A stretch of 64,000 nucleotides of DNA from Patescibacteria group bacterium. GTDB lineage: Bacteria > Patescibacteriota > Minisyncoccia > UBA6257 > JACRHW01. Location of the stretch: the NCBI GenBank assembly GCA_028865725.1, contig JAGWJP010000001.1, positions 143,143-207,142 on the forward strand, read 5' to 3'. The position numbers and the translations under genes were made by a program. Below the pieces are notes generated by a model. That model was given only the letters and a program-made list of their open reading frames with translations. It had not been told where the DNA came from and made no database searches. Below, piece after piece: positions 1 through 62,357 of this stretch (positions within the stretch are counted from its first letter, which is position 1; the number at the start of each line of letters is the position of its first letter).

Positions 1-2382
1 CAAAACTGGCAATTTAGAGAACCAACTGGAATAGCGGTAAATGATCCTAGTAATTTATACAATAGTCATATATATATAGCAGATTATGGTGCGAGACAAA
101 TATATGACTTTTATAATTCATGGCAACTACGCACTATATGGACCTCTCTTGGAAGTATAAATGGTCAATATTATGCTCCCCGTCGTATTGTTGCAGACAG
201 TTCTGGAAATACCTATGTTTTGTTTCCTAATCAACAGCTTATTCAACGATTTTCTTACATTGCTAGTTCATATCAGTATAGTGGTGGCTGGGGATCTCAA
301 GGAAGCGGGAATGGCCAGTTTGAATTTGGCAGTGGTGGCGATCTCGCAATTGGTGCTGGCGGAAATATATATGTGGCCGATACCCTCAATCGTCGGATTC
401 AGGAATTTACAAGTTCTGGACAATATATCAGACAATGGGGGTCAGGAGGAAGCGGGAACGGGCAATTTGATTACCCTGAAGGTATTACGATAGACAATTC
501 TGGAAATGTATTTGTGGCTGACTGCTCAGAAACTAGTTCGATATATAATTGTCGTATTCAAGAATTTGACAGTAATGGGACATATCTTACCCAATTTGGA
601 TCTCGAGGAAGCGGGAACGGGCAATTTAATGGAATAGGTGGGGTGGCTGTGGATAAGAATGGAAATGTGTTTGTAACCGATACTGGAAACAATCGTGTTG
701 AAAAATTTGGGTCTGTGATCACATCTGCAGGTGGGAGTGGCACAACAGGGATTACTACTACTTTGTGCCCTGACCCTACATCAACACCAGGAAGCACGCC
801 TTCTAATTCAGTAACGGGTTATGCGTGGTCTTCGAATATCGGGTGGGTGAAATTCTGCGGATCAAATTATGGCGTGCATATCGATCCTTCTTCCGGATTA
901 TTTTCCGGCTATGCGTGGAGTGAAAATGTAGGGTGGGTGAAATTTGATCCTGCGGGTCCGTATCCCGCTTCTGCGCAAACAGGTGCCCATTTAGATTGTA
1001 CAACCGGAAAAGTTTCTGGATGGGCGCGCGTGTGTACCGCGGCCGCAGATCCTCTTAATTGCTCCGGGGGTGCGGGGAGTAATACGGGCGGATGGGATGG
1101 GTGGATAAATCTTGGAAGTACAGGGCATAGCGATGGTGTTTCAAAATTTAATAATGCACTTATGGGTTGGGCATGGGGAGATGACAAGGTGGGGTGGTTG
1201 AGTTTTGATAGCGGAAGCGCAGGAAGTGCAGTTCCCTATGGGGTTAAGGTAGATTCGCGCATTTGTAGCAACAATGCCGTAGGCGATGTGGGGGTTACGC
1301 TTCACGCAAGCCCGCTTACTGTCACCTCGGGCGGTACGACTACCCTTACCTGGACTTCGGCACATGCGACTTCGTGTGTTGCCTCCAACAACGCCTCAAA
1401 TAGCTGGACCGGGTCAAAAGGAATCAACAATACTGCGGGAGACACAAGCGGCCCTATTACCACTCCGACCACATTTACGCTTACGTGTATGGGGCCGAAT
1501 GGTTCTGCGACCGCGTCGGCTACCGTGGCGCCTCTTGGAGATGTGGCGGTAACCTTGAATGCGAATCCAGTGAAGGTAAATTCCGGAGATACGACCACGT
1601 TAAGCTGGACTTCAGAAAATGCTACTTCGTGCACTGCTTCAAACACAACTTCTAATAGTTGGACAGGATCTAAATCTTTGAACAATGCGTCAGGAGAATC
1701 AAGCGGCCCCATTACTTCGACAACCGTCTTTACTCTTATTTGTACTGGCGCAGGAGGTACTGCGACCGCGAATGCGACCGTCATCGCAAACGGAGGAGGC
1801 GCTGCGCCAACGCTTGATTTGGAAGCAAATGGAACAAAAAATCCAGTAGTGTCACAGGGCACTCCCGTCACCCTTTCATGGACGTCTACCAATACTACTT
1901 CTTGCACCGCTTCAAATGGATGGAGCGGCGCTAAGGCATTAAGCGGATCAGAACCGAGCAATCCTATCACTGCAAATACGGTCTTTACTCTTTCTTGCGT
2001 AGGTCCGAGAGGTTCGGTCACTGATTCTGTTTCAGTATCGTTACCTTCAACAAATGGAGGCGGAGGCGGCGGTGGTGGTGGTACGGGCGGAGGAGGCGGC
2101 GGCACTCAATCGCAACTTGTATTCGACGCTACGCCGTCTCATATTTCAAGCGGCGGTACCTCAACACTTGTGTGGAATGCGACTGGCTTCAATTCCTGTA
2201 CCGCGGACGGCGCGACTCAAGCTGGGCAAGCGGTTTCGGATCCTAATTGGTCAGGGAATCTGGCAACTTCCGGATTGGTTCATGTTTCTCCCCATAAATC
2301 TACTATCTATAAATTGACGTGTGACGGTACCTCGCTTACTGCCGCAGTAGTTGTGACGAATATCACCGAAATCAACCCCTAG
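1..2382 (+). CDS. 5'-partial secreted/surface protein. It has NHL repeats (YVADTLNRRIQEF-type), three W-rich about 30-aa repeats, four tandem Ig/PKD-like domains and a poly-Gly linker.
   Basis: Frame 1 is open from base 1 (QNWQFREPTGIAV...) and continues into the listed ORF 220..2382, so the gene starts upstream of the window. Repeated NRIQEF/NGQF NHL motifs are present. The unit TLTWTS..ATSC..SNSWTGSK..SGPIT..TFTLTC occurs four times. The linker is GGGGGGGGGTGGGGGG. Confidence 0.7.
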   Translation, partial: QNWQFREPTGIAVNDPSNLYNSHIYIADYGARQIYDFYNSWQLRTIWTSLGSINGQYYAPRRIVADSSGNTYVLFPNQQLIQRFSYIASSYQYSGGWGSQGSGNGQFEFGSGGDLAIGAGGNIYVADTLNRRIQEFTSSGQYIRQWGSGGSGNGQFDYPEGITIDNSGNVFVADCSETSSIYNCRIQEFDSNGTYLTQFGSRGSGNGQFNGIGGVAVDKNGNVFVTDTGNNRVEKFGSVITSAGGSGTTGITTTLCPDPTSTPGSTPSNSVTGYAWSSNIGWVKFCGSNYGVHIDPSSGLFSGYAWSENVGWVKFDPAGPYPASAQTGAHLDCTTGKVSGWARVCTAAADPLNCSGGAGSNTGGWDGWINLGSTGHSDGVSKFNNALMGWAWGDDKVGWLSFDSGSAGSAVPYGVKVDSRICSNNAVGDVGVTLHASPLTVTSGGTTTLTWTSAHATSCVASNNASNSWTGSKGINNTAGDTSGPITTPTTFTLTCMGPNGSATASATVAPLGDVAVTLNANPVKVNSGDTTTLSWTSENATSCTASNTTSNSWTGSKSLNNASGESSGPITSTTVFTLICTGAGGTATANATVIANGGGAAPTLDLEANGTKNPVVSQGTPVTLSWTSTNTTSCTASNGWSGAKALSGSEPSNPITANTVFTLSCVGPRGSVTDSVSVSLPSTNGGGGGGGGGTGGGGGGTQSQLVFDATPSHISSGGTSTLVWNATGFNSCTADGATQAGQAVSDPNWSGNLATSGLVHVSPHKSTIYKLTCDGTSLTAAVVVTNITEINP

Positions 2383-17041: not shown

Positions 17042-17047
17042 TCCAGA

Positions 17048-49370: not shown

Positions 49371-49950
49371 ATAAATAAGATGAGTGCCTTAGGATGGATT
49401 AATGTAGAGAATGATGGATTTTATGTCATGGAAGATTTCCCTCCGGTTCCTTGGTATTTTTGGCTGAATATTCTCGGCGTCGTTTTGTTAATAGGTCTTA
49501 CGATATGGACCTTTTCTCAAATATGACGCCACTCTTTACGCACGTAAAGATTCTAACATACCTTTTCGCGGTGTGTTTTTATTTACAAGCTCCGAGTGGA
49601 TCTGAGGAGATTCCTTCACGAAACGCTCTTGACTAAGAGAATCAAATTTTTGCCCCTCGCCACTTCGCGCTCATATTTTCACCTTTGGTGGACTTGGTAC
49701 GAAACCAGTGGAACGAAATATTGCGAGAATTGGCCGAATGGAATCAGCTCAAGATCGCCCACGAAGCACTGCTTGCTACCAGATAATCACAGTTTAGCCG
49801 ATTTTTCCGAGTTTGTGAATGGAACTAACCGGACACAAACTTAACTCACCGATTTCTGCCCCGTGTTTGCCCCTGGGGCGAGCTTTGTACCGAGAGTAGA
49901 CACCTCGACCATGGCCCACCGGTTTGACCAAAATTGAGAGCCTAAAACGA

Positions 49951-49969
49951 TTTGCTTAACTTAAGCAAA
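49951..49969. repeat. Perfect 9-bp palindrome with a 1-nt spacer (tttgcttaa c ttaagcaaa).
   Basis: Read directly. It is 48 nt upstream of ORF 50017. Confidence 0.4.
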
Positions 49970-50016
49970 TATGACTCCTCGCTGGACTTGTTCCGAGGGC
50001 AAGCGTATGTTCTTGC

Positions 50017-50328
50017 TTGCCTATGAACGAGGACATCGAAGCCGTCCTCCGGGACGCAAAAAATGTACGATTGCCACATCAGCGCGGATCATTCAATCCG
50101 CTATCCTCGCTTCCAGAACCTAAAGCCAAAATCAAACAAGCGATCAAGGAACGAATCAGACTTCTTGCCGGTGCTTATATTTCCCTTGCCGGATTTGTGG
50201 ACGATGACGATATTCGGTTTGCCGAAGCAAATCAGAAATCAGTCAAAACAAAAGCAATATATCAAAAAATTCTCGAGGAGATGGAAACAGCGATTGAGGA
50301 AATAAGGCAGTTTAAAATTATTGATTAA
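50017..50328 (+). CDS. Hypothetical protein (103 aa).
   Basis: ORF only. Confidence 0.35.
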   Translation: MPMNEDIEAVLRDAKNVRLPHQRGSFNPLSSLPEPKAKIKQAIKERIRLLAGAYISLAGFVDDDDIRFAEANQKSVKTKAIYQKILEEMETAIEEIRQFKIID

Positions 50329-51450
50329 TTACTTCAACCCTAAGGCCTTTTCTCCCTGTTCAAAGAGATCGAGAAACTCCCTTGATAGAATGAGCGGTAT
50401 AAATTTTTGCTTATCGCCGTCTGATAATTTTGGGAGAGAATCAATATCCCACGCTTCAAAACCTATTGCCTTGCCGGTTTCTATTTTCAAATCTTTGATA
50501 TCACCATCGAATAAATAAACATATTGGGCCCTGAGAGTATTGTTGGTGAGACCGGTAGCTTCGTCGAAACTCTTTTTTGGCATTGTCTTTACCAATTTCA
50601 GTTTGGCCGGATCAAGAGTGATCCCGGTTTCTTCCAGAGCTTCTTTTAAAGCGGTTGCTTCATATGACATTCCCGGATCTACATGACCACCAACCGTTGC
50701 ATCGAGTTTATCAGGATAGGTATCTTTATCTTTTGCCCGGTGTTGGAAGATTAGCTTGCGATCTGGTGTCATAAACCAAATATGAATTTCTCTGTGAAGC
50801 AATCCTTCTTTGTGGATTTTCTTTCTGTTCTCCAGTCCGATTACTTCGTTCTTTTCATTTACCACCTCAAGCAATTCAATACCTGAAATCCTATCATGCG
50901 CAATCGCAATTAGTCTGTTGAACGGTCCAAAGCCATCATCCGAAGTGATGTGTCCGCCCTTCGGAATGGTTATAACCTCAGATCCGAGAAGCTTTTCAAA
51001 TTTTTCTTTAGTTTTCTCGTATGGCACCCAAGGATCATTATCTCCCAATAAGGTGACCAAGAAGCCCAAATTGCTTCTTACTTTTGCAGTATCGATGGGA
51101 GTCTCTGTCCAAGGTTTTGCGATTGCTTCTGCATCCGGCCCCTCAAGATTTTCAAGATCAAACCAGCCAGCGACAAATATTGCGCCACCAACTTTTATAT
51201 TAATAGTTTGTAGATAGCGCATTATAGTCTGACACCCAATACTATGCCCAATAAAGTATGTATCCTGATCCGGAGTGCCAACGATACGATCAAGAAAGGG
51301 CACCCAATCCTCGATGGTAGGATTTTCAGTATGTGGCAAATCTGGACAGACAACCTCGTAGCCAAGCTTCTTGAATTCTGTGGTTGTCCAAGGCATCCAA
51401 TCCCGATCCGATGCCCCATCCCAACCATGAACAATAATTATTTTTTTCAT
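50329..51450 (-). CDS. Fusion protein: an N-terminal alpha/beta-hydrolase (YdeN/RBBP9-like serine hydrolase) joined to a C-terminal Nudix hydrolase.
   Basis: The N-terminus IIIVHGWDGASDRDW...YFIGHSIGCQ is Ser-hydrolase-like. The Nudix box GGHVDPGMSYEATALKEALEETGI is present. Confidence 0.7.
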   Translation of the reverse strand: MKKIIIVHGWDGASDRDWMPWTTTEFKKLGYEVVCPDLPHTENPTIEDWVPFLDRIVGTPDQDTYFIGHSIGCQTIMRYLQTINIKVGGAIFVAGWFDLENLEGPDAEAIAKPWTETPIDTAKVRSNLGFLVTLLGDNDPWVPYEKTKEKFEKLLGSEVITIPKGGHITSDDGFGPFNRLIAIAHDRISGIELLEVVNEKNEVIGLENRKKIHKEGLLHREIHIWFMTPDRKLIFQHRAKDKDTYPDKLDATVGGHVDPGMSYEATALKEALEETGITLDPAKLKLVKTMPKKSFDEATGLTNNTLRAQYVYLFDGDIKDLKIETGKAIGFEAWDIDSLPKLSDGDKQKFIPLILSREFLDLFEQGEKALGLK

Positions 51451-51860
51451 AAATTTTCTTTGATTTTTTTATAAATTTCCATAAGCACATCTTCAGGAAT
51501 CTTGAAACTATGGTCAGTTTTATAATTATGACCCCACAATTTATCTTCAAAAGTGGTGTTCAGAAATTCCTTTGGTTTTGCATAGCGAGGAATAAAATGT
51601 CCATGCAAATGTCTGGTTTCATTGCCAAGAAAAGCATAATTAAACCAATCTGGCTGAAAAACTTTACTGATCGCATTTTTCAAGTCCGTAAGAACTGAAA
51701 ATAATTCCTGCTGTTCTTCTTGTGTGGCTTCGGTAAGATCAAGAGCATTTTCTCTTTTGCACCAAACCACACATCGTCCTAAATATCCCTGATTTTCGTG
51801 GATATATACAGACCAGTATCTATATTCTTTGATTAAAAATTTTGAGTAGTTATCTGACAT
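51447..51860 (-). CDS. HIT (histidine triad) family nucleotide hydrolase/transferase.
   Basis: HLHGHFIPR histidine triad. It overlaps the downstream gene by 4 nt. Confidence 0.65.
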   Translation of the reverse strand: MSDNYSKFLIKEYRYWSVYIHENQGYLGRCVVWCKRENALDLTEATQEEQQELFSVLTDLKNAISKVFQPDWFNYAFLGNETRHLHGHFIPRYAKPKEFLNTTFEDKLWGHNYKTDHSFKIPEDVLMEIYKKIKENL

Positions 51861-51861
51861 A

Positions 51862-52818
51862 TTAATATGCGGTTGTCCTTGTTAAATGATAGGGCTTGTC
51901 ATCGGGGTATTTCGTTTGAGTATATAGCCAAAGATGATCGTTTATGTCCATAGAAGTGATTCCATCAAACCTTTTTTGAACCTCTTGTTTTATAAACTCA
52001 ACCGCCCAGATCGTATTAGCCCTGATTTCAATTTCTTCCTCGCTGTCATGCGGAATGGGGGTTTTAGAATCGATTTTTTCGGCCAGTGAATCGACATAGG
52101 AGAGAATGCCGAATTTTCTAAGTGCTTGAGGCAATTTATAATCAGCACAAGCGGTGATTTCATTGGCATTTTTGAAATCGCCGGGTCCCTGATGTTTAAA
52201 TAACTGGTAGATATCGGCAATTAAAAGCTGGGCTCTTTTATAAAAATCTATCTCTTTTCCTTTATAAATACTTACGTCTCTAAAAGAAGGGAACGTTTCG
52301 ATAATGAACTCGAGTAAATGAACAGCGTCTTTATTTGCTTGCAAAATAAAATCAGAGAAATTGCCGTTGTTCTTTGCGATCAATGCTTTACCAGTCTCGA
52401 CCATAATGACATGTCGTTCATTAAGCAATGGAATCTCTGAATTACCTCGCAGGATCTCGGCGAGTTCCTGCCTGCTCATTTTAGATCGATAGTCGGCACT
52501 TAAAATATCTCGTCCTTCATCTATGGCTCGCTTGAGTGCAACAATCATTCCCCATGCACCGTCAAATTGCTGATCTTTATAAGTTATCGTCCATTTGGGG
52601 TTGCCCCAATAGCTGAAGCTAAGAGCGTTAAAAACAAATAGAAAGTTAAGTTTGTCATCATCGGATAATTCGGAAAAACCAAACGGGGCGGCTGAGAGCC
52701 AGTGCTGAACGTTGGTATGGTCAAAATTCTTTGCGAATTCCAAAACCTTGTCTTGGTTAATTCGGACAAATTGAGATTGATCGATTACCAACTTAGTTGT
52801 TTCTAAAACTTTATTCAT
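51862..52818 (-). CDS. Uncharacterised protein. It possibly belongs to the DUF2419/queuosine-salvage (QNG1-like) family, but that assignment is tentative.
   Basis: 318 aa with FNALSFSYWGNPKW. The family assignment rests on recollection only. Confidence 0.35.
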   Translation of the reverse strand: MNKVLETTKLVIDQSQFVRINQDKVLEFAKNFDHTNVQHWLSAAPFGFSELSDDDKLNFLFVFNALSFSYWGNPKWTITYKDQQFDGAWGMIVALKRAIDEGRDILSADYRSKMSRQELAEILRGNSEIPLLNERHVIMVETGKALIAKNNGNFSDFILQANKDAVHLLEFIIETFPSFRDVSIYKGKEIDFYKRAQLLIADIYQLFKHQGPGDFKNANEITACADYKLPQALRKFGILSYVDSLAEKIDSKTPIPHDSEEEIEIRANTIWAVEFIKQEVQKRFDGITSMDINDHLWLYTQTKYPDDKPYHLTRTTAY

Positions 52819-53138
52819 AGTGTTTCAATAGGATAAATATCGAAAGCAACCTCCTCGTAAGGATGAACCGCTTTCACTTTTTTAATTACTTCGTCCAAAA
52901 TGGATCGAGGAACGACTGCTTCGATCCGCTCTTCTTCGACCGATTCATAGTTTCCACTTTTACCGATAGCTGGGTGAGAATTTTCATTGCCACGATAACG
53001 TCCGATACCTCTGGATGAAAAAGAACAAAAATCATAATTGCCGACTTTACCAGCACCGGCTTCTCCAAGTGTCTGTCTTACAATATCAGCATGGGATAAT
53101 GGAACAAACACTACTAATTTCACATCTTCTGTTTTCAT
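52815..53138 (-). CDS. Small protein (107 aa) resembling the PII-like insert domain of NIF3/YqfO proteins.
   Basis: ...HPYEEVAFDIYPI C-terminal motif. It starts 12 nt after the stop of the PHP-ATPase and overlaps the next gene by 4 nt. Confidence 0.4.
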   Translation of the reverse strand: MKTEDVKLVVFVPLSHADIVRQTLGEAGAGKVGNYDFCSFSSRGIGRYRGNENSHPAIGKSGNYESVEEERIEAVVPRSILDEVIKKVKAVHPYEEVAFDIYPIETL

Positions 53139-53149
53139 TGTTTTATAAA

Positions 53150-56029
53150 TTAATCTGGAAAACTATATTTTTGTTCGCGTTTTTGAAATGCCTCTTTGCC
53201 ACCCTCGAGTATCTCGCAGACATGCTGTCTAATCCCTTTGCGATACAAGATTGCTGGTTCTTGCTCGGCATTGAACTCGAAAGTATTTTCAAGAGCACCT
53301 GACACATATTCAAATCTGTATTTTTTATTATCGCGCCCGATCTCTTGACCGGCTTGGTTCGCGACAATTGTCTCCTCCGAATCTGCACCGACTACAAGGT
53401 TTGGATTATGCGTAACAATAATGATTTGCCTCTGCAATTTTTTCTTTTTCAGAAAGTCTACAAGATCATCGTATACAGAACGGTTGTCGAGATCGTCTTC
53501 GGGCTGATCGAGAAGTATAGGCCATTCTTCATTGCTCAAATTTATGAGCAATTGAAGCAACACGAGGCCTTTCTTTCCGGGAGACATTTTATCAAGCGAA
53601 TCGTTTTTGTAGAAAATTCTAAAATCCAGGAAAAAATAATTATCTAGCAACTTTGTCGAGGCATCTTTTGCTTGGCGATTCTTGACTGTGTTAATAGTGC
53701 CACCAACTAATCCTTCGAATACCGTTGTGATATTAGCAAGGTGCTTTGCTGGGTCATATTTATAAATAAATTCGTCGCCCCACTCAGCTTCGACAATTAC
53801 ACGCTTCAGATCGTGTTTATTTATATATTCCTTGACCACGTCGGAATTAAAAATATCGTCATTAAAACTTACATGGACTCCGAGTGTGATATCTCCAAAT
53901 TTACTCTCAAATTTCTTGAATTCATTCCGCAGGTTTTCGTACTTAGCGACAATCTGCTTATAGGATTCAATGATGCTGTCGGTCTTCTTTTTATGAGACG
54001 CTTTTTTGGTCTTCAGATTATTTCTCTTTATTGCTATTTCGTTCAATTTTTGTTGCTCTTTCTTGATAGCGTCTGTTTTCTCTTGTAACTCTGATTGCAA
54101 TTGGATTTTCGCAAGTAATGGTGCAAGCTCTGCTTTTATCCTTGTCATTTCCGCATTATGAACTTTAAGCTTTGCATCTATCGTGGTGATAAGGTTGAGC
54201 GTGGCAGTTTTTAGCCCAGGTTCGAAAGAATCAATTACTTTTAATTCGCTCTTAAACTTCGTTTTTATGTCGGCGTCATTCAAATACTCTTCGCATTCGT
54301 CTGCGGTTGTTCGCAATGATTCGACTTGAGAAATCAGGCTAGTATTTAAATTCTTTATGGTCTTTTTATCCTCTTCGAGATTTGAAACCTGTGCATTGAT
54401 TTCCTTTTCCTTTGCCACTAATCCCTCATACTGTTTGAGCTGTTCATCGGTCAGACCCGATTTTGCCTTGATAGCATCTGCCTGATTTTGAAGCGTTTTA
54501 ATATAACTCTCTATACCTTTCTCATCCCCTGCCTGTTTCAACTCCTCCTCGGTCTTTCCGATATCGTTGCGATCCAAAAATAACTCATTGATTGCAGTTG
54601 GGATAGACTTAGCTTCAGCTTTTATTTCTCGAAGGGTCTCCTCATATTTTTCTTTTACCGCTGGATCTTGCAAGATCACGTTGAGTACGAACTCATTCAG
54701 GGCCTCACGGCTCTTAATATTGGCTTCCGAAAGTGTATTCAGGTAACGCTGTGGTATATAAAGGATTTTACGTTCTTTTGATTCTTCTTCCGCTGATCCC
54801 TCCGGAACCCGAAGCAGAGTGTGCTGGCCGTCTTTCCATGTGACTTCGAAATTGAAATCCACCGAGTTATCAAAATCGTATTTGACCGGAACCCCGCTGT
54901 CTGAAGTACGACTTTTAACTTCCTGCTGGTCGATCGTTTTGGCCATGTAATAAAGCAGGAGAGATTTACCCGTAGATTTTCCACCGATAATGGTGGTCAG
55001 GTTCTGATTCACTTCTATAGGATCACTTCCAAATTTTGCATCACTTGTATTATCCAAAAAACGGACTTTGTCTATGACGAAATATGACTTTTTCTCCTCC
55101 GGTTTCTGGGGTCCGACAAAAATGCGCTGATCAGATTCGAAGACTATCTGTTTAAGACCTTCGAACGTTGGATCGGCTTTAATCCAAAGGAAGTTACCGT
55201 CTTGATCAGCTTTACCAAGATCACGCAATGATCTGGCGTCCGAGCTTATATGAGAACAAAACTTTGAGGTAAGCGACGTGTTAGTTTTGATATAGTCAGA
55301 GACGGAAGCTGATGACTGTTGACGCTGAGACTGCAAAAGGTTCATCTTTTGATAATTAAAGATATCAGCCAAGTGTGTCCGATCAGTCGCCGTACGTTCT
55401 TGGAAAAGACCGTTACTGCTGTTGCAATGAGGATAAATTATAATCCCTCCGTTTCTTTTGACTTCGTCTATGATTTCCTTGATATCAGTGCTTGTGGTCG
55501 TGAGAACTCCTTGGCTGTTTGTCCGGTTATTGATATTGAATTTTGTTAGAAACGCTTGAATGCCGGCAGAAAATGTAGACTTTTGGTACAGCTTGTCCGA
55601 AAAGAATAACAACATGTGAATGCCTTGGCAGTTGATCTCTACACCAGGGATGATTTTACAACGAGACTCTTTTGAATACTCTATGAACGTATCGAGCAGG
55701 CAATCGTCAAAATAATTATGATCGGTTATGCCTATACAATCTAAGTCGGGATTGAAGGTATCGAGAAAAGCAAAATAATTCCTGATGTGATTCACGCACC
55801 TATCGTTTTTTGTAATTTGAGCATTATTAAAATAAACCTTCGAGTCGTAGAGCAAGGCATTTTCTTCGCCCCCAACCTTAGCGATGTACTGTTGCCAAGC
55901 TGTCGGGTTAGCCGACTTTAATTCCTCTGAATAGTTTGCGAGAGGGATATAGTTGTCGTCCAAAATGGTCTGTGTTTGCAGGTCCCACTTTCTCCATATC
56001 GAACCTTTTGGATAAGGAAAATTATTCAT
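53150..56029 (-). CDS. 959-aa fusion of an N-terminal PHP-family phosphoesterase, a long coiled coil and a split ABC/SMC-type ATPase. It is a candidate defence effector.
   Basis: PHP-like His/Asp motifs CIGITDHNYFDD, IIPGVEINCQGIHMLLFF and IIIYPHCNSSNG. Walker A TTIIGGKSTGKSLL. About 350 aa of heptad-like K/E-rich sequence. Signature-like MSPGKKGLVLLQLL. Walker B PILLDQPEDDLD. H-loop IIIVTHNP. Confidence 0.75.
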   Translation of the reverse strand: MNNFPYPKGSIWRKWDLQTQTILDDNYIPLANYSEELKSANPTAWQQYIAKVGGEENALLYDSKVYFNNAQITKNDRCVNHIRNYFAFLDTFNPDLDCIGITDHNYFDDCLLDTFIEYSKESRCKIIPGVEINCQGIHMLLFFSDKLYQKSTFSAGIQAFLTKFNINNRTNSQGVLTTTSTDIKEIIDEVKRNGGIIIYPHCNSSNGLFQERTATDRTHLADIFNYQKMNLLQSQRQQSSASVSDYIKTNTSLTSKFCSHISSDARSLRDLGKADQDGNFLWIKADPTFEGLKQIVFESDQRIFVGPQKPEEKKSYFVIDKVRFLDNTSDAKFGSDPIEVNQNLTTIIGGKSTGKSLLLYYMAKTIDQQEVKSRTSDSGVPVKYDFDNSVDFNFEVTWKDGQHTLLRVPEGSAEEESKERKILYIPQRYLNTLSEANIKSREALNEFVLNVILQDPAVKEKYEETLREIKAEAKSIPTAINELFLDRNDIGKTEEELKQAGDEKGIESYIKTLQNQADAIKAKSGLTDEQLKQYEGLVAKEKEINAQVSNLEEDKKTIKNLNTSLISQVESLRTTADECEEYLNDADIKTKFKSELKVIDSFEPGLKTATLNLITTIDAKLKVHNAEMTRIKAELAPLLAKIQLQSELQEKTDAIKKEQQKLNEIAIKRNNLKTKKASHKKKTDSIIESYKQIVAKYENLRNEFKKFESKFGDITLGVHVSFNDDIFNSDVVKEYINKHDLKRVIVEAEWGDEFIYKYDPAKHLANITTVFEGLVGGTINTVKNRQAKDASTKLLDNYFFLDFRIFYKNDSLDKMSPGKKGLVLLQLLINLSNEEWPILLDQPEDDLDNRSVYDDLVDFLKKKKLQRQIIIVTHNPNLVVGADSEETIVANQAGQEIGRDNKKYRFEYVSGALENTFEFNAEQEPAILYRKGIRQHVCEILEGGKEAFQKREQKYSFPD

Positions 56030-56034
56030 AAATA

Positions 56035-56832
56035 CTAAAGAATTACAGTCACTTTTTCATAAAGCATAGGCCAGCTATCCTGACGCATTCTAAATTTAGT
56101 ACCGTGGTTATGACCACTGCGAGCATCGAAGTCGACGAGAATCTTTGCTTCTTCAATAGCTTTCAAAAATCCTTCAAAGCTGAATTTTTGAAGCATCATA
56201 ACCTTATTGTATTTGTAATATTCCTTACCTCGGACAGTTTTGACCTCTGCCTGAACATAAAAACTATTCAAAAGTTTTGTACCGGCCTTATGTTCAAGAT
56301 CATCAAAACCCCAATATGGCTGTGGATTAAGTTCGCCAAGTCCTACTCGTTCCTTTACCACCTTAAGCCATTCGGCGTGTCGGATGTCCACGCTCTTCGC
56401 ATCAAATGATATTAAGACTTTCTTTTCGGTCCGATCGATTTTTACCATAAAACCACGATCGCTACGTGTAAGACCATGAATAGTCTGTCGAAAACTCATC
56501 TCACCTTTTGGATACTTCTTGCCATCTTCCTGATGCGCCCAACCATATTTCGGTAAAAGAACTTGTGGCACAAAACGAATAGCTCTGGGGGAGGGTTCAA
56601 TGTGAAATAAAGTACAAAGAGAAGTTGAATTCAATCGTTGGGCTTTTAATTCCCATTCGGCCGCATTTGGAATAGGTAGATTATTTTCTTTGATTCCGAG
56701 TAAGTCTTCGAGAGTATTCCCGATACCGCCGTGATTGCCCTTGCGAGCATTAGGAACCCACCCCATATTGGCAATCTCTTTTAATTTTTCAATAAGGGCC
56801 GGCTTTGTGTAAATTTTCGGTTTGTTTGGCAT
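56035..56832 (-). CDS. Putative Type II restriction endonuclease (by recollection, MvaI/BcnI-like).
   Basis: Immediately downstream of the MTase. Start moved from the listed TTG (56913, overlapping the MTase by 77 nt) to the ATG at 56830-56832 (MPNKPKIYTK), 4 nt after the MTase stop. The family call is tentative. Confidence 0.5.
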   Translation of the reverse strand: MPNKPKIYTKPALIEKLKEIANMGWVPNARKGNHGGIGNTLEDLLGIKENNLPIPNAAEWELKAQRLNSTSLCTLFHIEPSPRAIRFVPQVLLPKYGWAHQEDGKKYPKGEMSFRQTIHGLTRSDRGFMVKIDRTEKKVLISFDAKSVDIRHAEWLKVVKERVGLGELNPQPYWGFDDLEHKAGTKLLNSFYVQAEVKTVRGKEYYKYNKVMMLQKFSFEGFLKAIEEAKILVDFDARSGHNHGTKFRMRQDSWPMLYEKVTVIL

Positions 56833-56836
56833 ATCT

Positions 56837-57658
56837 TTATAAAAGTTTTTGTTGGGCTTTATGGTTTTTAATTCTCTTCTCGGCCATCTCGCAATACTCC
56901 GGCGAAAGATCAATACCGATATAATGCCGGTTAAAATTTATTGCAGAAAGTGCGGTAGTACCAGAACCCATAAATGGGTCCAGAATAATTTTCGCATTGG
57001 TAGACGACACAATACGATCTATAAGATTTACAGGGAAAGCGGCTGGATGTTCGTTATTCATCTCCTGTGTAAATTCCCATACGTCACCGTGGCCACTTGC
57101 CTTAGGTGATAATTTAAATTTAGGTTTGGCGATAAGATAGATCACTTCGTATGTCGGCACAAAGTAACCGGGGTTAAAATTGAAACCGCCCTTTCTTCTC
57201 CAAATTATTATCTGGCGCACAGGAAAGCCACTTACAATATCCTGCCGATCCTGCAAAACACCTCCTTGTACGCGCCATTTATGATTGTAGAAAATCGCAC
57301 CATCTTCAGGAATAATCCTCATCATCTCCGCCAAGCATTCACGTTGCCATTTCACATACTCATCATGAGGCATACAGTCGTTATGGTGGGAGTAACCTTT
57401 TTGAAGTGCGGCATTTGCCCATTTACCACCACGGCCATCTTTCATGCCATTACCTGTAGAATTTTTAAGATTATAGGGTGGCGAAGTCACTATTAAATCA
57501 ACCGAGCCATCAGGTATTTTTTTCATGATATCAACTGCATTACCGCAGATGATTTTATTTAAAAAGTGATTAGGATATTCTAACTTCATAACCTTAGATT
57601 TAATGGGGCTCGTCTTTATTTTTACTTGAGTTTCCATATTATTTTGAATGCTTTTCAT
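56837..57658 (-). CDS. Beta-class DNA amino-methyltransferase (N4-cytosine or N6-adenine).
   Basis: Motif IV DLIVTSPPY precedes motif I FMGSGTT, which is the beta-class order. Confidence 0.85.
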   Translation of the reverse strand: MKSIQNNMETQVKIKTSPIKSKVMKLEYPNHFLNKIICGNAVDIMKKIPDGSVDLIVTSPPYNLKNSTGNGMKDGRGGKWANAALQKGYSHHNDCMPHDEYVKWQRECLAEMMRIIPEDGAIFYNHKWRVQGGVLQDRQDIVSGFPVRQIIIWRRKGGFNFNPGYFVPTYEVIYLIAKPKFKLSPKASGHGDVWEFTQEMNNEHPAAFPVNLIDRIVSSTNAKIILDPFMGSGTTALSAINFNRHYIGIDLSPEYCEMAEKRIKNHKAQQKLL

Positions 57659-57842
57659 TTTTCTTTTTTACGTTACTCGTCTCCTCAAGAAAGGTGTTGA
57701 GGTCTGATTGTTTGATCCGCCAAACCCCCAACTTAGACGCTTTTAATCTACCGGACTCGATATATCGGGTTACGGTGCGAGTATGTACTCGTAATATTTC
57801 GGCAATTTCCTCAATGGTAAAAAGTTTTTCGATTTCGTTCAT
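57639..57842 (-). CDS. Small HTH DNA-binding protein (excisionase/MerR-type HTH). It may be the R-M controller.
   Basis: FTIEEIAEILRVHTRTVTRYIESGRLKASKLG..WRI. It overlaps the MTase start by 20 nt. Confidence 0.65.
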   Translation of the reverse strand: MNEIEKLFTIEEIAEILRVHTRTVTRYIESGRLKASKLGVWRIKQSDLNTFLEETSNVKKKNEKHSK

Positions 57843-58003
57843 AAAAATAAATTAAGTCGTTGGTATCATTTTACCGCTTTCAGATTTCGTTGTCAAAATT
57901 GCCGGTTTTTGTCATAATGTACTTATGAGCTAATCTGATAAAGTTTAGTGAATGGGAGACATAAAATAGGTCCGATTCACTAAAATTTGATTAATCGGCT
58001 TGA

Positions 58004-58026
58004 GTTATTCGAAAATTTCGAATAAC
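58004..58026. promoter_or_regulatory. Perfect 11-bp-arm palindrome (gttattcgaaa a tttcgaataac) just upstream of ORF 58038. It is operator-like.
   Basis: Read directly from the sequence. Confidence 0.45.
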
Positions 58027-58037
58027 TGCATAAAAAA

Positions 58038-58721
58038 ATGAGTATGAAAATGAAAAAGGTCGCCAAGACCACCGAGTACAAATTTAATATAAGAAAACCG
58101 GTTGAGTTTATGTCCACTTACCGGCTATCAGTGGCTACCACTGAAAAGATTTTGCGGTTATCGATGAAATCAGCTGGCATAACCGACAGCGTTCAGATAA
58201 TAAAACACAATCAACCAGCTATCGGGCTTCTAACGAAAGAAATCATCGAAACCAAGCTCGAGGTAAAGAGTATCCGGTCCCTTTTAGAACGCCGAACTAG
58301 CAAATTTGAAGGGTTAACCGAATATGATCAGCATTTTATAAATACATTTGCCAAAGTGGCCGCAATTTCTTTCGCTGAATATTTTTCTCAAGGCAAAACC
58401 AAACCAGTATTAAACCAGACAATTCTCCACTTGTCGGCCGAGGCAGATTTATACCGTGAGCCGAAAAACAAGTATTGCTACCCTATGGGCAAAGAGCAGT
58501 CGCGTCACCAGATAGTTAAATACTTGATTGGCAAAGGATATCAAGCCACACCGGATATTCGCATGGCAACCAGTGCCAAAAGCGACTCATCCGTCCGTTC
58601 AGCAATCATGAAAATAAACGCTAAAGCCAAGCACGACCTAGAAATAGAGAAGAAATTGATTGAGGGCCGTCGCACTGGTGGTTACCGCATCAATCCAGAA
58701 TACAGAATTTTCTTGAAGTGA
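58038..58721 (+). CDS. Hypothetical protein (227 aa), first gene of a phage/plasmid-like module.
   Basis: ORF; a terminator lies downstream. Confidence 0.45.
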   Translation: MSMKMKKVAKTTEYKFNIRKPVEFMSTYRLSVATTEKILRLSMKSAGITDSVQIIKHNQPAIGLLTKEIIETKLEVKSIRSLLERRTSKFEGLTEYDQHFINTFAKVAAISFAEYFSQGKTKPVLNQTILHLSAEADLYREPKNKYCYPMGKEQSRHQIVKYLIGKGYQATPDIRMATSAKSDSSVRSAIMKINAKAKHDLEIEKKLIEGRRTGGYRINPEYRIFLK

Positions 58722-58758
58722 CGCTCGTAGTCCTCAAGTAATGTTAATAACTTTTCCG

Positions 58759-58787
58759 AAACGCTCACAAAATGGGCGTTTTTTGTT
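58759..58787 (+). terminator. Intrinsic terminator.
   Basis: AACGCtcacaaaatggGCGTTtttttg. Confidence 0.45.
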
Positions 58788-58848
58788 TGCCAAAATTTAT
58801 CCGCGGACTATTTAAGGCATAGCGGGTCGTTCGCTACGATAAACGCAT

Positions 58849-59064
58849 ATGTTAAGCGTTGAGCGAGTCAAACAATTAGCGAACGATCCCACTCTCTCTG
58901 ATAAGCAAATCGAGGAAATCAGAGACGGCTTTTATATGCTCTCACAAGTGATCTTTGAACAGTGGCAAGCCGAGAGAAACAAGGCTAAAGAAGCTGAGCA
59001 AAAAGATAATAAGAAAATTAATAATCAAAATGAATATGAAAAACCAACCGGACAACAGCAGTAA
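58849..59064 (+). CDS. Hypothetical small protein (71 aa).
   Basis: ORF only. Confidence 0.35.
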   Translation: MLSVERVKQLANDPTLSDKQIEEIRDGFYMLSQVIFEQWQAERNKAKEAEQKDNKKINNQNEYEKPTGQQQ

Positions 59065-59296
59065 TTTTATCACCAGCGACTTCTACGTAGCCGCTTTTTT
59101 GCTCGCTAGCAAATATAAGCTTGTCGGCATAAACAAAACTGACATTCGTCGGTTTCGTTTTGTTTTTGTTGATCAGCCGGGACGGGTCCAATTCGTGGAA
59201 GGATATTTTTTAGGTTATACCGACGTGAATGTTAAAGAATTCGTCTCAGCGATTAAGGAACTCAAATCGCTGATGTATAACGACGCGATCAGTTGA
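59030..59296 (+). CDS. Hypothetical small protein (about 88 aa), overlapping the previous ORF by 35 nt.
   Basis: Internal ATG of listed ORF 58955..59296. Translation: MNMKNQPDNSSNFITSDFYVAAFLLASKYKLVGINKTDIRRFRFVFVD.... Confidence 0.4.
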   Translation: MNMKNQPDNSSNFITSDFYVAAFLLASKYKLVGINKTDIRRFRFVFVDQPGRVQFVEGYFLGYTDVNVKEFVSAIKELKSLMYNDAIS

Positions 59297-59315
59297 AAAT
59301 AACTGAATATGAAAT

Positions 59316-60089
59316 ATGGAAAATCTGCCATTCGAAATAGATAACAATGATTACGTAAAGCTTCCCCGAAGCATCAAGACCGCCCTTGTGGACGGCTATT
59401 TGAGTTTTGAGGAATACTCGGTCCTTGTCTGGCTGTGGATCAATGCCAATCCCCGGATCGGCAAAGCCCATGTAAGCTACGCCGGCCTTTCCAAAGACTT
59501 CAAGGAAAAATACTCCAAGAATCACATCAACCGGCTGATGTTAAACCTAAAGTTCAAGAAGTGGATATGGTTTCCAGTACAGCAAGGTCGCAGAAGTTCG
59601 TTCCATGTTGATATCGCCAATTATCCTTTATCTAACGGTGGTTTTGTTGAGCTTGAGAAGCGTATCAAACAGAAGTCCGGCAGAAGTGAAAGTGATACTG
59701 GTACACAATTACCAACAGAAGTGTCGACAGAAGTCAGCGACGTTCGGCAGAAGTTGGAAAGCGACAAAAATGCTTTGGTAGATAGGTTTTCGTTCGGTTC
59801 AGAAAGTTCGCTCGGCAGAAGTTCCAAAAACGACAACGAGAATGAAAATAAAAACAACCGATCGAATCGTGGTCGACCCGTAAGAGAATTTACCCCCAAG
59901 TCTTACGAGGAACAGAAATGCTGGGAGATAGCTCAAAAGTTGGGAGAAAAAGACATGACCTTCATCCTCTCAGCTCTCAAAAAATACGGACTGACAAGAA
60001 TTGAGGAAGCTTACCGGTCAGTCATGGATCAACCGAGCGAGAAAATCCGAAGCCGAGGTGCGTATTTTAATCGTCTACTAAATTTGTAA
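59316..60089 (+). CDS. Putative replication initiation or replisome-organiser-like protein. It has a wHTH N-terminus and a DnaD-like C-terminus. The call is tentative.
   Basis: The N-terminus LVDGYLSFEEYSVLVWLWINAN is HTH-like. A low-complexity acidic/Ser linker follows. The C-terminus CWEIAQKLGEKDMTFILSALKKYGLTRIEEAYRSV is helical. Confidence 0.35.
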   Translation: MENLPFEIDNNDYVKLPRSIKTALVDGYLSFEEYSVLVWLWINANPRIGKAHVSYAGLSKDFKEKYSKNHINRLMLNLKFKKWIWFPVQQGRRSSFHVDIANYPLSNGGFVELEKRIKQKSGRSESDTGTQLPTEVSTEVSDVRQKLESDKNALVDRFSFGSESSLGRSSKNDNENENKNNRSNRGRPVREFTPKSYEEQKCWEIAQKLGEKDMTFILSALKKYGLTRIEEAYRSVMDQPSEKIRSRGAYFNRLLNL

Positions 60090-60090
60090 C

Positions 60091-60588
60091 ATGCCCAAGC
60101 TCACATACCTAAGACCAAAACATAAACGAGCCATAGAAATGAAATGGCAGGGTTCTCAGTACAAAGAAATTGCCAACGAGTTTGGAGTCTCGATTGATAC
60201 GGTTAAGTTTTGGTTTAGAGCGAAAGGTTTTTTGAGAGAAGCCTATAGTAAATACAGAGGCGAGCAAATTCTGAACAGGGATATTCAGGAAAAACAAGAA
60301 CGAATAAAAGCACTTACCGGCAATGGTTCGCATCAGGGCACAACGGACATCATAAATTCTTTGAGTCTTCCGATCCGTAAAATGTTCCAAAAGTTACCGG
60401 TGAAAGAAAAAGACGCTGTAATGGAACGATTCTATGAATTGAATCGGGAGTCCGAGGAGAGATTTAATAACTACACTAAACGGCACCAACTCACACCAAA
60501 TGACACCAAAAATGAGAAAGAAATAAATACACTTACACCCAATAAGCCCCCAAATAAGCCACCGAACCGTGCAAAACCATGCGAATAA
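60091..60588 (+). CDS. HTH-domain protein (sigma-70 region-4 or terminase-small-subunit-like).
   Basis: KRAIEMKWQGSQYKEIANEFGVSIDTVKFWFRAKG. Confidence 0.45.
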   Translation: MPKLTYLRPKHKRAIEMKWQGSQYKEIANEFGVSIDTVKFWFRAKGFLREAYSKYRGEQILNRDIQEKQERIKALTGNGSHQGTTDIINSLSLPIRKMFQKLPVKEKDAVMERFYELNRESEERFNNYTKRHQLTPNDTKNEKEINTLTPNKPPNKPPNRAKPCE

Positions 60589-60761
60589 CTACACTTAAAT
60601 ACAACAAAATGCAGTTAATTACAGCGTTTGAGCAAAATAAATGGAGATAAATAGTGATAAATGGTGTTTTTTGGAGAAAAATCCGAGACTGTGGGCAACT
60701 CGAGCTTAGCTTGTCCACCAAAATAGCGTATGTTGTGTGTTGAGAAATCTCTGCGAAAAAT

Positions 60762-62357
60762 ATGATGAAAGGAATTATTTACACAAGAGTATCAAGCGAT
60801 GAACAGGTCAAAGGTACCTCGCTGGAACACCAAGAGGAACTTTGCCGGAAATACTGCAAAGACAAAGGCATCGAAGTCGATGTGGTTTTCCGTGAGGAAG
60901 GAGAAAGTGCAAAAGACCTGAGCTTGCAGAATCGCAAAAGGTTTCTGGAAGCTCTTGAGTTCTGTCGCAAGAACAAAGACAAGGTCCAGGCCTTTGTGGT
61001 TTTGCGCGTGGATAGATTTGCCCGTAATGCCGATGACCATTTTGCTATTAGAAAAATCCTAGCGACGTATGGCACAACACTGCATTCAGTCACCGAACCG
61101 ATCGGAAATGAGCCGGTAGCTAAGCTTTTGGAAACATTCCTTGCCGGTATTGCTGAATTTGATAACGCCATCAGAAAACAAAGATGCAGTGATGGAATGC
61201 TTGCCAGAATCAACCAAGGTATCTATCCATGGAAACCGCCGATCGGTTATAAATGCGTTAACTTCAAAAAGCACGGCGAGAAAAAGACCCACGCCGATCC
61301 GCCCCACGAGCAGATATTCCCGATTATCCAAAGAGGACTGAAAGAATTCGCTCAGGGTCTGCACTCGCAAAGCGAGCTGATGAGAAAACTGGACGAATGG
61401 GGTCTTAAGGATTTGACCGGAAAGAAAAGCACGCCCCAGCTTGTAAGCCGATTAGTGACCAACTACCTAAAGTTTTATGCCGGCATAATTACCAATCCGT
61501 GGACAGGCAAAGATGTTGAGGGCCAGCATATTCCGATGATTACCAAAGACGAGATGTATCAAATCAAAATGATCCTGACCGGTAAAAAGAGATTGGTGGC
61601 TAAATACAACATCTTCAATCCAGACTTTCCGCTTAGACGAACCGTAACCTGCGCTGTTTGCGGACGACCGCTGACCGGAAGCGCGCCTCGAGGCGGAATG
61701 GGAGGACGATATAACTATTACCACTGCGGAAATAAGAACTGCCGGGTATTTGGTAAAAGCACACCCAAGCTGGAATTGGAAAAGATGTTTTTTGAATATT
61801 TAGAGAGAGTTACTCCCAAACAAGCGTTCCTCGATATTTTCAAGGAAAGCGTGATTGATATTTGGAAAGAAAAAGGCCAGAGGTTTGAAATGGAAGCCGA
61901 GAAGTGGAAAAAGAAGCTGGAAACGCTTGAGGCAAAGAAAAAACGCATCTACGAAATGCGAGAGGACGGTTCATATACCAAAGAGGAGTTTGTGGAACGG
62001 AAAGATGAAATTGAGAACGAGATATCAACCACCAGAATATTATCCAACGAAGCCCGAATCGAGCAGTTCGATATTGAAGGATCAGTCATTTATGCGACCA
62101 AGTTCATAAGCAACCTCGGCCGACAATGGTTCGACCTTGTGCCACACTTACAGCCCAAGTTCCAGAAACTAGTCTTCCCAGAAGGAATACCGTTTGAATG
62201 GAAAAAAGGATTTGGAACTGCCAAATTAGCAGTCATTTACGAGATGAATCGGGAATTCTCGACTGAAAATTCCGCTTTGGTGGACCTAGCGAGAATCGAA
62301 CTCGCGTCTCTACAATGCGAATGTAGCGTCTTGCCACTGGACCATAGGCCCAAATGA
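60762..62357 (+). CDS. Large serine recombinase (phage-integrase type).
   Basis: The resolvase catalytic domain IIYTRVSSDEQ carries the catalytic Ser. A recombinase domain and zinc ribbon CAVCGRPLTGS...YYHCGNKNC follow. The last 25 codons are antisense to tRNA-Ala. Confidence 0.85.
   Translation: MMKGIIYTRVSSDEQVKGTSLEHQEELCRKYCKDKGIEVDVVFREEGESAKDLSLQNRKRFLEALEFCRKNKDKVQAFVVLRVDRFARNADDHFAIRKILATYGTTLHSVTEPIGNEPVAKLLETFLAGIAEFDNAIRKQRCSDGMLARINQGIYPWKPPIGYKCVNFKKHGEKKTHADPPHEQIFPIIQRGLKEFAQGLHSQSELMRKLDEWGLKDLTGKKSTPQLVSRLVTNYLKFYAGIITNPWTGKDVEGQHIPMITKDEMYQIKMILTGKKRLVAKYNIFNPDFPLRRTVTCAVCGRPLTGSAPRGGMGGRYNYYHCGNKNCRVFGKSTPKLELEKMFFEYLERVTPKQAFLDIFKESVIDIWKEKGQRFEMEAEKWKKKLETLEAKKKRIYEMREDGSYTKEEFVERKDEIENEISTTRILSNEARIEQFDIEGSVIYATKFISNLGRQWFDLVPHLQPKFQKLVFPEGIPFEWKKGFGTAKLAVIYEMNREFSTENSALVDLARIELASLQCECSVLPLDHRPK
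62278..62351 (-). tRNA. tRNA-Ala (CGC) with G3:U70 and encoded CCA.
   Basis: On the minus strand: gggccta/taggtcc acceptor with the G3-U70 wobble, which is the Ala identity element; anticodon arm ctaca-uuCGCau-tgtag; T-arm gcgag-ttcgatt-ctcgc; discriminator A; CCA. Confidence 0.8.

Follow-up and report, generated by a model that had tools for sequence, protein, structure and literature searches.

The window considered here is a 64,000-nucleotide stretch of the genome of a Patescibacteria group bacterium (assembly GCA_028865725.1, contig JAGWJP010000001.1, positions 143,143 to 207,142 of the forward strand), and its right-hand portion carries a gene for a large serine recombinase (LSR) that reads through a tRNA gene. 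As the preliminary description of this DNA had reported, the open reading frame (ORF) of the recombinase continues through the antisense strand of an intact tRNA-Ala(CGC) gene, which its last 26 codons span completely and which is the sole Rfam match between 49 and 64 kb. To the left of the LSR gene lie a core module of small genes, a restriction-modification pair and a cluster of accessory genes. Beyond these, no gene is called between 49333 and 50022, in agreement with the gene-free stretch originally noted, and this stretch contains the second copy of an 11-nt sequence that is also present at the end of the tRNA gene.

The 531-residue product of the LSR gene carries the catalytic motif YTRVSSDEQ. 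Residues R9, S11, S12, Q15, R85 and R88, together with the zinc-ribbon cysteines C297, C300, C322 and C327, are invariant among 30 aligned homologs. The Zn_ribbon_recom family of Pfam is matched at 24.7 bits, just below the cut-off of 25.3 bits, and an AlphaFold2 model exhibits long helices at residues 351-428, in keeping with a coiled-coil insertion in the zinc-ribbon domain. Among structures in the PDB, a sequence match is found to 3guv (E 5e-14), and the top full-length Foldseek matches are the integrases of SPbeta, Bxb1, phiC31 and A118 (E 9e-17 to 9e-9). Judged by sequence and modelled fold, the protein therefore belongs firmly among the large serine integrases represented by these four enzymes. 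A look-up of the exact 531-residue protein returned no record, for which a different start or end assigned by gene callers is one possible reason.

Within the window, the 11-mer CTTTGGTGGAC is present at exactly two places, and two or more copies were present in none of 100 dinucleotide-preserving shuffles. The repeat was thus correctly recognized in the preliminary description, which however placed the distal copy 4 nt away, at 49679-49689 rather than 49683-49693. Eight nucleotides of the repeat belong to the tRNA gene; no other repeated tRNA-derived sequence was seen in the window, and the distal end lacks the long direct repeat of the tRNA 3' portion that classical islands carry. The evidence described below supports the assignment of the two copies as the common cores of the left (attL) and right (attR) junctions of a 12,592-bp element, with attL comprising a host arm (B) to its left and an element arm (P') to its right. 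The enclosed DNA has a guanine-plus-cytosine (GC) content of 41.1%, compared with 44.9% elsewhere in the window; the other 12.6-kb stretches sampled to the left of the element all have higher values (minimum 42.7%). Its ORFs include no Pfam or PHROG match for capsid, portal, tail or large-terminase genes and no Pfam match for a tyrosine recombinase or phage-integrase domain, which leaves the serine enzyme as the sole recombinase. Given that virion genes are lacking and that the LSR has no relative above 34% identity in the IMG/VR viral collection, we consider the element to be non-viral. Our principal conclusion, to which we assign a probability of roughly 0.85, is that the DNA from approximately 49688 to 62281 is a 12.6-kb non-viral integrative element, inserted by its LSR at the extreme 3' end of the tRNA-Ala(CGC) gene.

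The most telling evidence for this conclusion lies immediately to the right of the distal 11-mer. Here the DNA, in the frame of the 11-mer, encodes LVDLVRNQWNEILRELAEWNQLK...*, which is the conserved native C-terminus of the LSR family; the complete translation from the repeat in its own frame is LVDLVRNQWNEILRELAEWNQLKIAHEALLATR, ended by the stop codon at 49784-49786. We constructed a hidden Markov model (HMM) from the 24 tail residues downstream of the repeat-encoded residues in 42 homologs. When applied to the six-frame translation of the window, this tail-only HMM yielded a single match, in the frame at 49637-49783 on the plus strand (E 3.4e-5), and the next best had an E value of 2. The orphaned tail matches those of 42-45 homologs, and when 60762-62285 is joined to 49694-49786, a 538-residue protein is reconstructed that ends in the same manner as the native-tail homologs. 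Because an orphaned tail sits in frame beside the distal 11-mer, the element's own attachment site (attP) must have been located inside the integrase gene, a situation that the preliminary description had not foreseen. Residues 1-506 of the integrated-form enzyme are wholly element-encoded, codon 507 (Val, the GTG within TGGTGGAC) spans the inferred crossover, and residues 508-531 are coded by the antisense strand of the tRNA gene. Integration has thereby moved the last 31 codons of the LSR gene 12.6 kb away and put 24 tRNA-antisense codons in their place. The predicted attP corresponds to 62245-62285 plus 49694-49733 (junction tgaatcgggaattctcgactgaaaattccgCTTTGGTGGACttggtacgaaaccagtggaacgaaatattgcg), and the predicted target site (attB) to 49653-49693 plus 62286-62325 (junction cccctcgccacttcgcgctcatattttcacCTTTGGTGGACctagcgagaatcgaactcgcgtctctacaatg).

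Table 1. Positions, within the window, of the junctions, the integrase gene and the other features of the integrative element.
Feature	Position	Strand	Evidence
attL common core CTTTGGTGGAC	49683..49693	+	exact repeat of 62275-62285; codon-aligned junctions, 10 loci
Orphaned integrase 3' end, LVD-LVRNQWNEILRELAEWNQLKIAHEALLATR and stop (49784-49786)	49685..49786	+	tail-only HMM E 3.4e-5
Small ORF (called as a 101-aa gene, 50023-50328)	50017..50328	+	no Pfam, PADLOC or PHROG match
Serine hydrolase and NUDIX fusion	50329..51450	-	Pfam Ser_hydrolase 3e-24, NUDIX 5e-11
HIT-family hydrolase	51447..51860	-	Pfam HIT 1e-6
Queuosine salvage protein (Q_salvage/DUF2419)	51862..52818	-	Pfam PF10343, E 7e-79
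107-aa protein	52815..53138	-	no Pfam, PADLOC or PHROG match
959-aa SMC/ABC-like ATPase, Ppl-like	53150..56029	-	PADLOC Ppl E 3.3e-18; weak Pfam SMC_N, AAA_21
MvaI/BcnI-family type II restriction endonuclease (gene called 56035-56832)	56035..56913	-	Pfam 8e-67; PADLOC REase_II 4e-84
N4/N6 DNA methyltransferase (gene called 56837-57589)	56837..57658	-	Pfam N6_N4_Mtase 7e-40; PADLOC MTase_II 6e-123
HTH_17 (excisionase/MerR-like) DNA-binding protein	57639..57842	-	Pfam HTH_17 4e-16; PHROG excisionase families 2e-11
Divergent control region, flanked by the HTH_17 and 227-aa genes	57940..58027		inverted repeat and palindrome
Core module, 227-aa protein	58038..58721	+	syntenic in L003/L009, L007, L013; no family match
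Core module, 71-aa ORF and DUF5659 protein (59036-59296)	58849..59296	+	Pfam DUF5659 2e-8; gene calls
Core module, 257-aa protein	59316..60089	+	68-94% identical across many Parcubacteria lineages
Core module, 165-aa sigma-70 region-4-type helix-turn-helix (HTH) protein	60091..60588	+	Pfam Sigma70_r4_2 1.5e-7
Large serine recombinase, integrated-form ORF, 531 aa	60762..62357	+	Pfam Resolvase E 1.5e-26
attR common core CTTTGGTGGAC	62275..62285	+	exact repeat; codon-aligned junctions
tRNA-Ala(CGC), intact, encoded CCA, attB target	62278..62351	-	ARAGORN; Rfam tRNA 62.7 bits

The same arrangement recurs throughout the LSR family. A protein search yielded 827 homologs, and the best 120 of these (57-94% identical) were used to compare tails. 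Directly after the invariant Val507, the listed homologs diverge into two main kinds of tail. The first is antisense tRNA sequence, such as VDLGGIEPPxRQCECRVIPLYYRP or VDxxGLEPATSSVQxRRSTR, and varies freely in both sequence and length (10-30+ residues). The second, present in approximately 45 of the best 120, is the conserved peptide KSxLVxxxxxxWNQIIxELxxWQxL, which is maintained across phyla at 57-65% overall identity; a few homologs have other or truncated ends. We also scanned one genome per species, which gave 80 loci. The LSR 3' end overlies a minus-strand tRNA gene in 44 of them, nearly all from Patescibacteria, and the tRNAs concerned are 25 for Ala, six for Glu, four for Lys, three each for Met and Arg, two for Ile and one for Tyr. 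An intact native tail with no tRNA is found at 15 loci, all outside Patescibacteria (Omnitrophota, Ignavibacteria, Bacteroidetes, Smithella and others), and the remaining LSR genes have other 3' ends (12 loci) or are cut by the end of a contig (nine loci). Besides the window, 14 loci carry an orphaned native tail upstream of the LSR gene and on the same strand. The distance from tail to LSR is 7.2-11.3 kb in the nine loci that are codon-aligned at both junctions, and every tail-HMM match reported at E<=1 lies on the LSR strand.

Comparison of the junctions points to a crossover at two base pairs. The cores common to attL and attR in 10 loci range from 2 to 11 bp (TGGTAG, TTGGTAG, GTGGAC, GTGTCCC, TGGTGGAA, ATGTGGAC, TGGTGGA, TGGTGACCC, GT and CTTTGGTGGAC). 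Since GT is always included and is the only part common to all 10 cores, we infer that it is the crossover dinucleotide, which would place strand exchange at 49688-49689 in attL and at 62280-62281 in attR. The dinucleotide forms positions 1 and 2 of the codon for Val507, a residue that is invariant in the 30 aligned LSRs and present in 32 of 33 tail copies, and is antisense to the discriminator A73 and C74 of the tRNA. With this placement, C75-A76 and all that lies downstream now derive from the element, and the tRNA stays intact because the element restores these two nucleotides. The consensus of 13 native, attP-like sites is AAAAATCCC.T.TG[GT]GGACTTC..G...ATC.ATTGGAACCA, and that of 49 tRNA junctions is ..TG[GT]GGACC....GGGAATCGAACCC. 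In the right arms, a GAAC motif appears at +22..25 in P' (within the Trp-Asn codons) and at +17..20 in B' (within the T-loop); the left arms exhibit no clear motif. In the window alone, GAA can be read by eye at 23-25 from the centre in both P arms, although this signal is weak. For the LI integrase, the motif of the zinc-ribbon domain is reported to lie 5 bp nearer the centre in attB than in attP (PMC3783163). The 5-bp shift of GAAC in the right arms matches this published displacement and is suggestive of a similar architecture. An inverted copy of the core, GTCCACCAA (60712-60720), is located upstream of the LSR start; it is not conserved in L007, L008 or L013, and we have treated it as a chance occurrence.

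An uninterrupted version of the locus is found in the nearest syntenic relative that we identified, the Parcubacteria genome L087 (GCA_016217555.1). Its gene order follows that of the window (DnaE, RNase HII, L32, NusB, RNase III, SMC, S16 and KH) and continues with an ortholog of the HD-family gene on the left flank, a tRNA-Ala(cgc) gene on the minus strand (11643-11715) and a mechanosensitive (MS) channel gene whose product is 81% identical in amino acid sequence to that of window 62718-63398. The interval between the two flanking genes is about 970 bp and contains no recombinase. L087 therefore provides the empty tRNA-Ala site that the preliminary description had anticipated in relatives lacking the insertion. 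The metagenome-assembled genome L007 carries an LSR that is 98% identical in amino acid sequence and matches window 56036-62303 at approximately 90% nucleotide identity; it is located at a different tRNA-Ala gene (TGC), and its cargo differs to the left of the restriction enzyme gene. In L009, where the LSR is 83% identical, the core genes are retained and are accompanied by type I restriction-modification, AAA_14/DUF4143 and DUF6119 genes. More distant complete elements span 7-9 kb and by BLASTP have only the LSR in common with the window. Several relatives encode Prim-Pol or Toprim and AAA_25 replication proteins beside the LSR, gene content that would fit a replicating circular stage. The earlier suggestion that the distal 11-mer bounds an element of about 12.6 kb is borne out by the orphaned tail, by its recurrence in other genomes and by the states of L087 and L007.

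The HD-related gene on the left flank is tandemly duplicated in the window (47251-48222 and 48352-49332, the paralogs being 51% identical). In L087 the gene is present once, with 58% identity to the first paralog and 49% to the second.

Serine integrases carry out integration by recombining attP with attB, and excision requires a directionality factor. In the family described here, the LSR probably recombines an attP embedded at the 3' end of its own coding sequence with tRNA genes, at their CCA/acceptor/T-arm end, and exchanges strands at GT. In the excised circle, the ORF would then read from 60762 across the joint into 49694-49786 and specify the 538-residue enzyme with its native tail, whereas in the integrated state it reads into the tRNA antisense strand and specifies a 531-residue enzyme with an unrelated tail of 24 residues. 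Given that integrated and excised elements would make different enzymes, the exchange of tails could act as a built-in sensor of the element's state. The exchange may bias directionality, with the tail serving as a cis-acting modulator of the coiled-coil/zinc-ribbon directionality machinery; it may alter integrase stability, with the tail as the determinant; or it may alter expression, through collision of the antisense overlap with transcription of the tRNA gene. That the exchange matters in one or more of these ways is a tentative idea, and we lean against it. Its most specific form seems to us unlikely as it stands: exchange of the C-terminal helix would constitute a self-contained directionality or state switch, in which the circle produces a native-tail integrase that is competent for integration or short-lived, and the integrated element produces an isoform with the exchanged tail, able to carry out excision or confined to it, and further damped by the tRNA antisense overlap.

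The competing explanation with the best prospects, which we regard as a serious contender somewhat short of even odds, is that the tail exchange is a neutral by-product. According to this explanation, attP merely overlaps the end of the gene, the tail is conserved only as DNA of the P' arm and both forms of the enzyme behave alike, while direction is imposed by a conventional factor, perhaps the HTH_17 protein, or by none, as in TndX-type systems. An excisionase-like HTH_17 gene is indeed present in the element, and the freely variable tRNA-encoded tails imply that the integrated form tolerates almost any tail. Conservation itself points in both directions. Near the crossover, third codon positions are conserved (0.94 identical in the Asn codon and 0.88 in the Asp codon), which indicates a constraint at the level of DNA rather than of codons. 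However, W, N, E, L and W vary little or not at all among 33 unique tail copies, and the invariant E, L, W and L lie 36-60 nt past the crossover, outside a typical half-site of about 25 bp. In these distal codons, conservation is 0.67 at position 2 and 0.45 at position 3, which argues for selection on the peptide beyond the reach of the half-site. The retention of the tail across phyla likewise argues against neutrality, as does its predicted structure, in which a flexible linker bears the native C-terminus, an amphipathic helix with the conserved pattern ..WNxIxxELxxWxxL... In an AlphaFold2 model of the native-tail homolog P0005, a low-confidence disordered linker (residues 486-500) precedes a terminal helix (residues 511-531) with a predicted local distance difference test (pLDDT) score of about 76-80, and the crossover codon, Val504, falls between the two. 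With regard to stability, the final two residues are AA or VA in 12 of 42 native tails (P0016, P0044, P0055, P0080, P0089, P0094, P0096, P0103 and others), and these endings are absent among the most frequent ones of the other 78 homologs. A resemblance to ssrA-like degradation signals is only hinted at by analogy, in that some phages with integration-dependent immunity carry ssrA-like tags on their repressor (PMC4557955).

Other explanations concern the element itself. The left boundary might lie elsewhere, such that the mobile unit comprises only the core and the restriction-modification genes (approximately 56.0-62.3 kb), the DNA from 49.7 to 56.0 kb is a separate older island or host DNA, and the distal 11-mer is incidental. 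Homology to L007 stops at 56036, the first 635 bp of the element (49694-50328) have a host-like GC content of 45.5%, and the Logan contig L002 ends at 50031. This contig end is 340 bp inside the element, and it therefore represents the integrated form only and carries no information on the boundary. The GC content is low across 50.3-60.6 kb, L087 lacks the whole 12.6 kb rather than just 6 kb, and differing cargo is to be expected between related elements, as the type I restriction-modification genes of L009 illustrate. Because the orphaned integrase tail is also found exactly at 49694-49786, in frame with the 11-mer, we consider a different left boundary to be improbable. Slightly less credible still is a degraded prophage or phage satellite in place of an autonomous element. 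The PHROG ‘integrase’ and ‘excisionase’ families do match the LSR and the HTH_17 protein, and the HTH protein at 60091-60588 has weak matches to small-terminase-like families, but the missing virion genes, the remoteness of the LSR family from IMG/VR sequences and the small size of complete relatives, which carry primase or helicase genes instead, all speak against it. Finally, that the repeat and the ORF read-through arose by chance beside a fixed chromosomal recombinase, with nothing mobile at all, can practically be dismissed, because even though excision has never been directly observed, this idea runs counter to the comparative evidence as a whole, and in particular to the empty L087 site and the orphaned tails at 14 other loci.

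Regardless, several observations weigh against the integrative element as we have described it, and readers should consider them when assessing its merits. Neither an excised circle with an attP junction nor an empty attB in the same species was found, a scan of JGI metagenomes with the left-flank protein returned no relatives, and the contigs with an identical flanking protein all carry the integrated form. The relative that provides the empty site is rather remote (49-93% amino acid identity), and L087 has odd repeats beside its tRNA gene (11360-11660), namely two copies of TGGTGGACCCCGTTAGA(G/A)GTAG, each paired with an inverted CTAC(C/T)TCTAACGGGGTGGAC. In the same region lies an isolated 3' half of a tRNA-Ala gene (11473-11504), with 97% identity to the tRNA of the window, and the resident tRNA gene ends ..GTCCACCC, so that its CCA is not fully encoded. 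These repeats and the tRNA half may be relics of earlier insertions, or a small miniature inverted-repeat transposable element (MITE), at the same hot spot. With respect to the attachment sites, the GT crossover presupposes that cleavage occurs at corresponding positions in all loci, the one core of 2 bp (that of L064) depends on our codon alignment, and no clear dyad symmetry of attP is evident across 13 native loci. Outside Patescibacteria, LSR genes with intact native tails reside within large chromosomal contigs (2.55 Mb in one example), where recombination evidently does not use the in-gene site as its junction. The native tail of the window ends ..LLATR, which does not resemble the degron-like AA or VA endings.

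Many characteristics of this integrase are shared with the large serine integrases of phages and other elements (phiC31, Bxb1, A118/LI, SPbeta and TP901-1). These have the same plan of resolvase catalytic, recombinase and coiled-coil zinc-ribbon domains, and likewise use short attachment sites with few identical bases around a 2-bp crossover, predicted here at GT. They also have a motif that lies 5 bp further out in attP than in attB, to which the displaced GAAC of the right arms may correspond. However, the canonical enzymes target a protein-coding gene and have their attachment site outside the integrase gene, whereas the LSR of the window targets the CCA end of a tRNA, carries the site in its own coding sequence and consequently has state-dependent C-termini. 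It also has an additional C-terminal linker and helix, and its family was not found in viral contigs. According to a review of integrative mobilizable elements, those with serine recombinases typically integrate within genes, and it is tyrosine integrases that use tRNA 3' ends (PMC5704250). The element resembles classical tRNA islands and integrative mobilizable elements in that the integrase gene abuts an intact tRNA 3' end, the defence and accessory cargo is modular and the GC content is lower than that of the host, but it differs from them by employing a serine rather than a tyrosine recombinase and by a repeat that holds only 8 nt of the tRNA.

Precedents for an attachment site within a gene also exist. 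The ‘suicidal’ archaeal integrases of the SSV1 type carry the site in their own gene, move its 3' part to the far end of the element and target tRNA genes (PMC8371274). These are tyrosine recombinases of archaeal viruses whose gene is split and disrupted, whereas here the last 31 codons are exchanged, the ORF remains open and all catalytic and DNA-binding domains are kept. In the integration-dependent immunity of mycobacteriophage BPs, attP overlaps the 3' end of a regulatory gene adjacent to int, and integration into a tRNA gene changes the C-terminus and the behaviour of the encoded protein (PMC4557955). The resemblance is analogous rather than homologous, as the BPs system is that of a phage with a tyrosine integrase and affects a repressor, whereas in our non-viral element the serine integrase itself would be altered. 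In a published account (PMC5737554), a fusion of phiC31 Int to gp3 through a C-terminal flexible linker indicates that a tethered peptide can set the direction of recombination, a functional precedent for directional control by a C-terminal tail. Such fusions are artificial and attach a factor of about 240 residues, and the natural counterpart suggested here would be a helix of about 20 residues that is gained or lost by recombination itself. We found no description in the literature of an LSR with attP in its own gene or of one that targets tRNA CCA ends, although our search was incomplete and prior publication is possible.

The cargo is mainly concerned with defence, as PADLOC recognizes a type II restriction-modification system and a Ppl-like ATPase, and is completed by a cluster of queuosine-salvage, HIT and NUDIX genes. 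This cluster (50329-52818) suggests nucleoside or queuosine salvage borne by a mobile element whose bacterial host has a reduced genome. The restriction-modification genes, HTH genes and palindromes listed in the preliminary description are all present. Its PHP-ATPase, the 959-residue protein, is indeed an ATPase, with the best stretch of the Ppl match in the C-terminal ATPase half, but no Pfam PHP domain was detected. The ‘Rep/organiser-like’ label given to the 257-residue core protein could not be sustained, as the protein has no Pfam or PHROG match and its AlphaFold2 model (pLDDT 57) has no fold match. The HTH_17 protein is a candidate for the recombination directionality factor or for a controller of restriction-modification. 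Between its gene and the divergent 227-residue gene lie an 18-nt inverted repeat (57940-57957 and 57971-57988) and a perfect 12-nt palindrome (58003-58014 and 58016-58027, AGTTATTCGAAA/TTTCGAATAACT). Part of this region (57941-57989) is conserved in L013, and the region is likely to be an operator.

Further features were encountered in the relatives of the element. In many Patescibacteria loci (L020:9923-9998, L026:9926-10000, L029, L037, L054 and L059), a conserved stem-loop of approximately 75 nt (AAAGGGGCGGTCTGCC...GGTCAACCAGACCGTCCCTTTAAG) lies upstream of the integrase gene and terminates 5-20 nt ahead of its ATG, and the window has a shorter hairpin at 60690-60718. RNAalifold predicts 28 pairs, 10 of them with compensatory changes, and there is no Rfam match; the structure may be a leader or attenuator for integrase expression. 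LSR loci with tRNA junctions also occur in bins assigned to Bdellovibrionales (L025, L027, L028 and L033), Gammaproteobacteria (L030, L058 and L086) and Planctomycetales (L041), which could reflect either a wider host range or the mis-binning of small contigs. The LSRs of L014 (~11515-11680, Yonathbacteria) and L021 (~6170-6385, Sungiibacteriota) have a common tail that is neither tRNA-derived nor native, VVIIPKSSD.FPAE.RMRHARSAWWLETKS, which hints that a second target is conserved, perhaps the gene for another structured RNA.

An array of four units, each 1.1-1.5 kb in length, is located downstream of a native-tail LSR gene in Ignavibacteriales (L047:11460-16482, PLNZ01000273.1; the same sequence occurs in L048). 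Each unit comprises a conserved block of about 300 nt, a tail-coding copy that follows non-LSR DNA (...CTCTGTTTCGTG|GTGGTC...) and a different small ORF on the minus strand. The last tail of the array is identical to the LSR tail of L052, and L044 has one extra tail, at 17023-17073. The arrangement looks like the serial, integron-like insertion of tail-carrying cassettes into an in-gene integrase site, and a related site of this kind may capture small cassettes that carry a tail.

Serine integrases are major tools of genome engineering, and the basis of their choice of direction is under active structural study. A natural and widespread family that rewrites the C-terminus of its own enzyme by recombination would offer a directly testable model for state-dependent control, and the exact predicted attP and attB sequences are provided by this analysis. 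The targeted CCA/T-arm end of tRNA genes is nearly universal, and its use leaves the genes undamaged. In Patescibacteria, a group with poorly known mobile elements, the family also emerges as a common carrier of defence systems and accessory metabolism. If the proposed role of the tail is true, the product of recombination would reprogram the recombinase.

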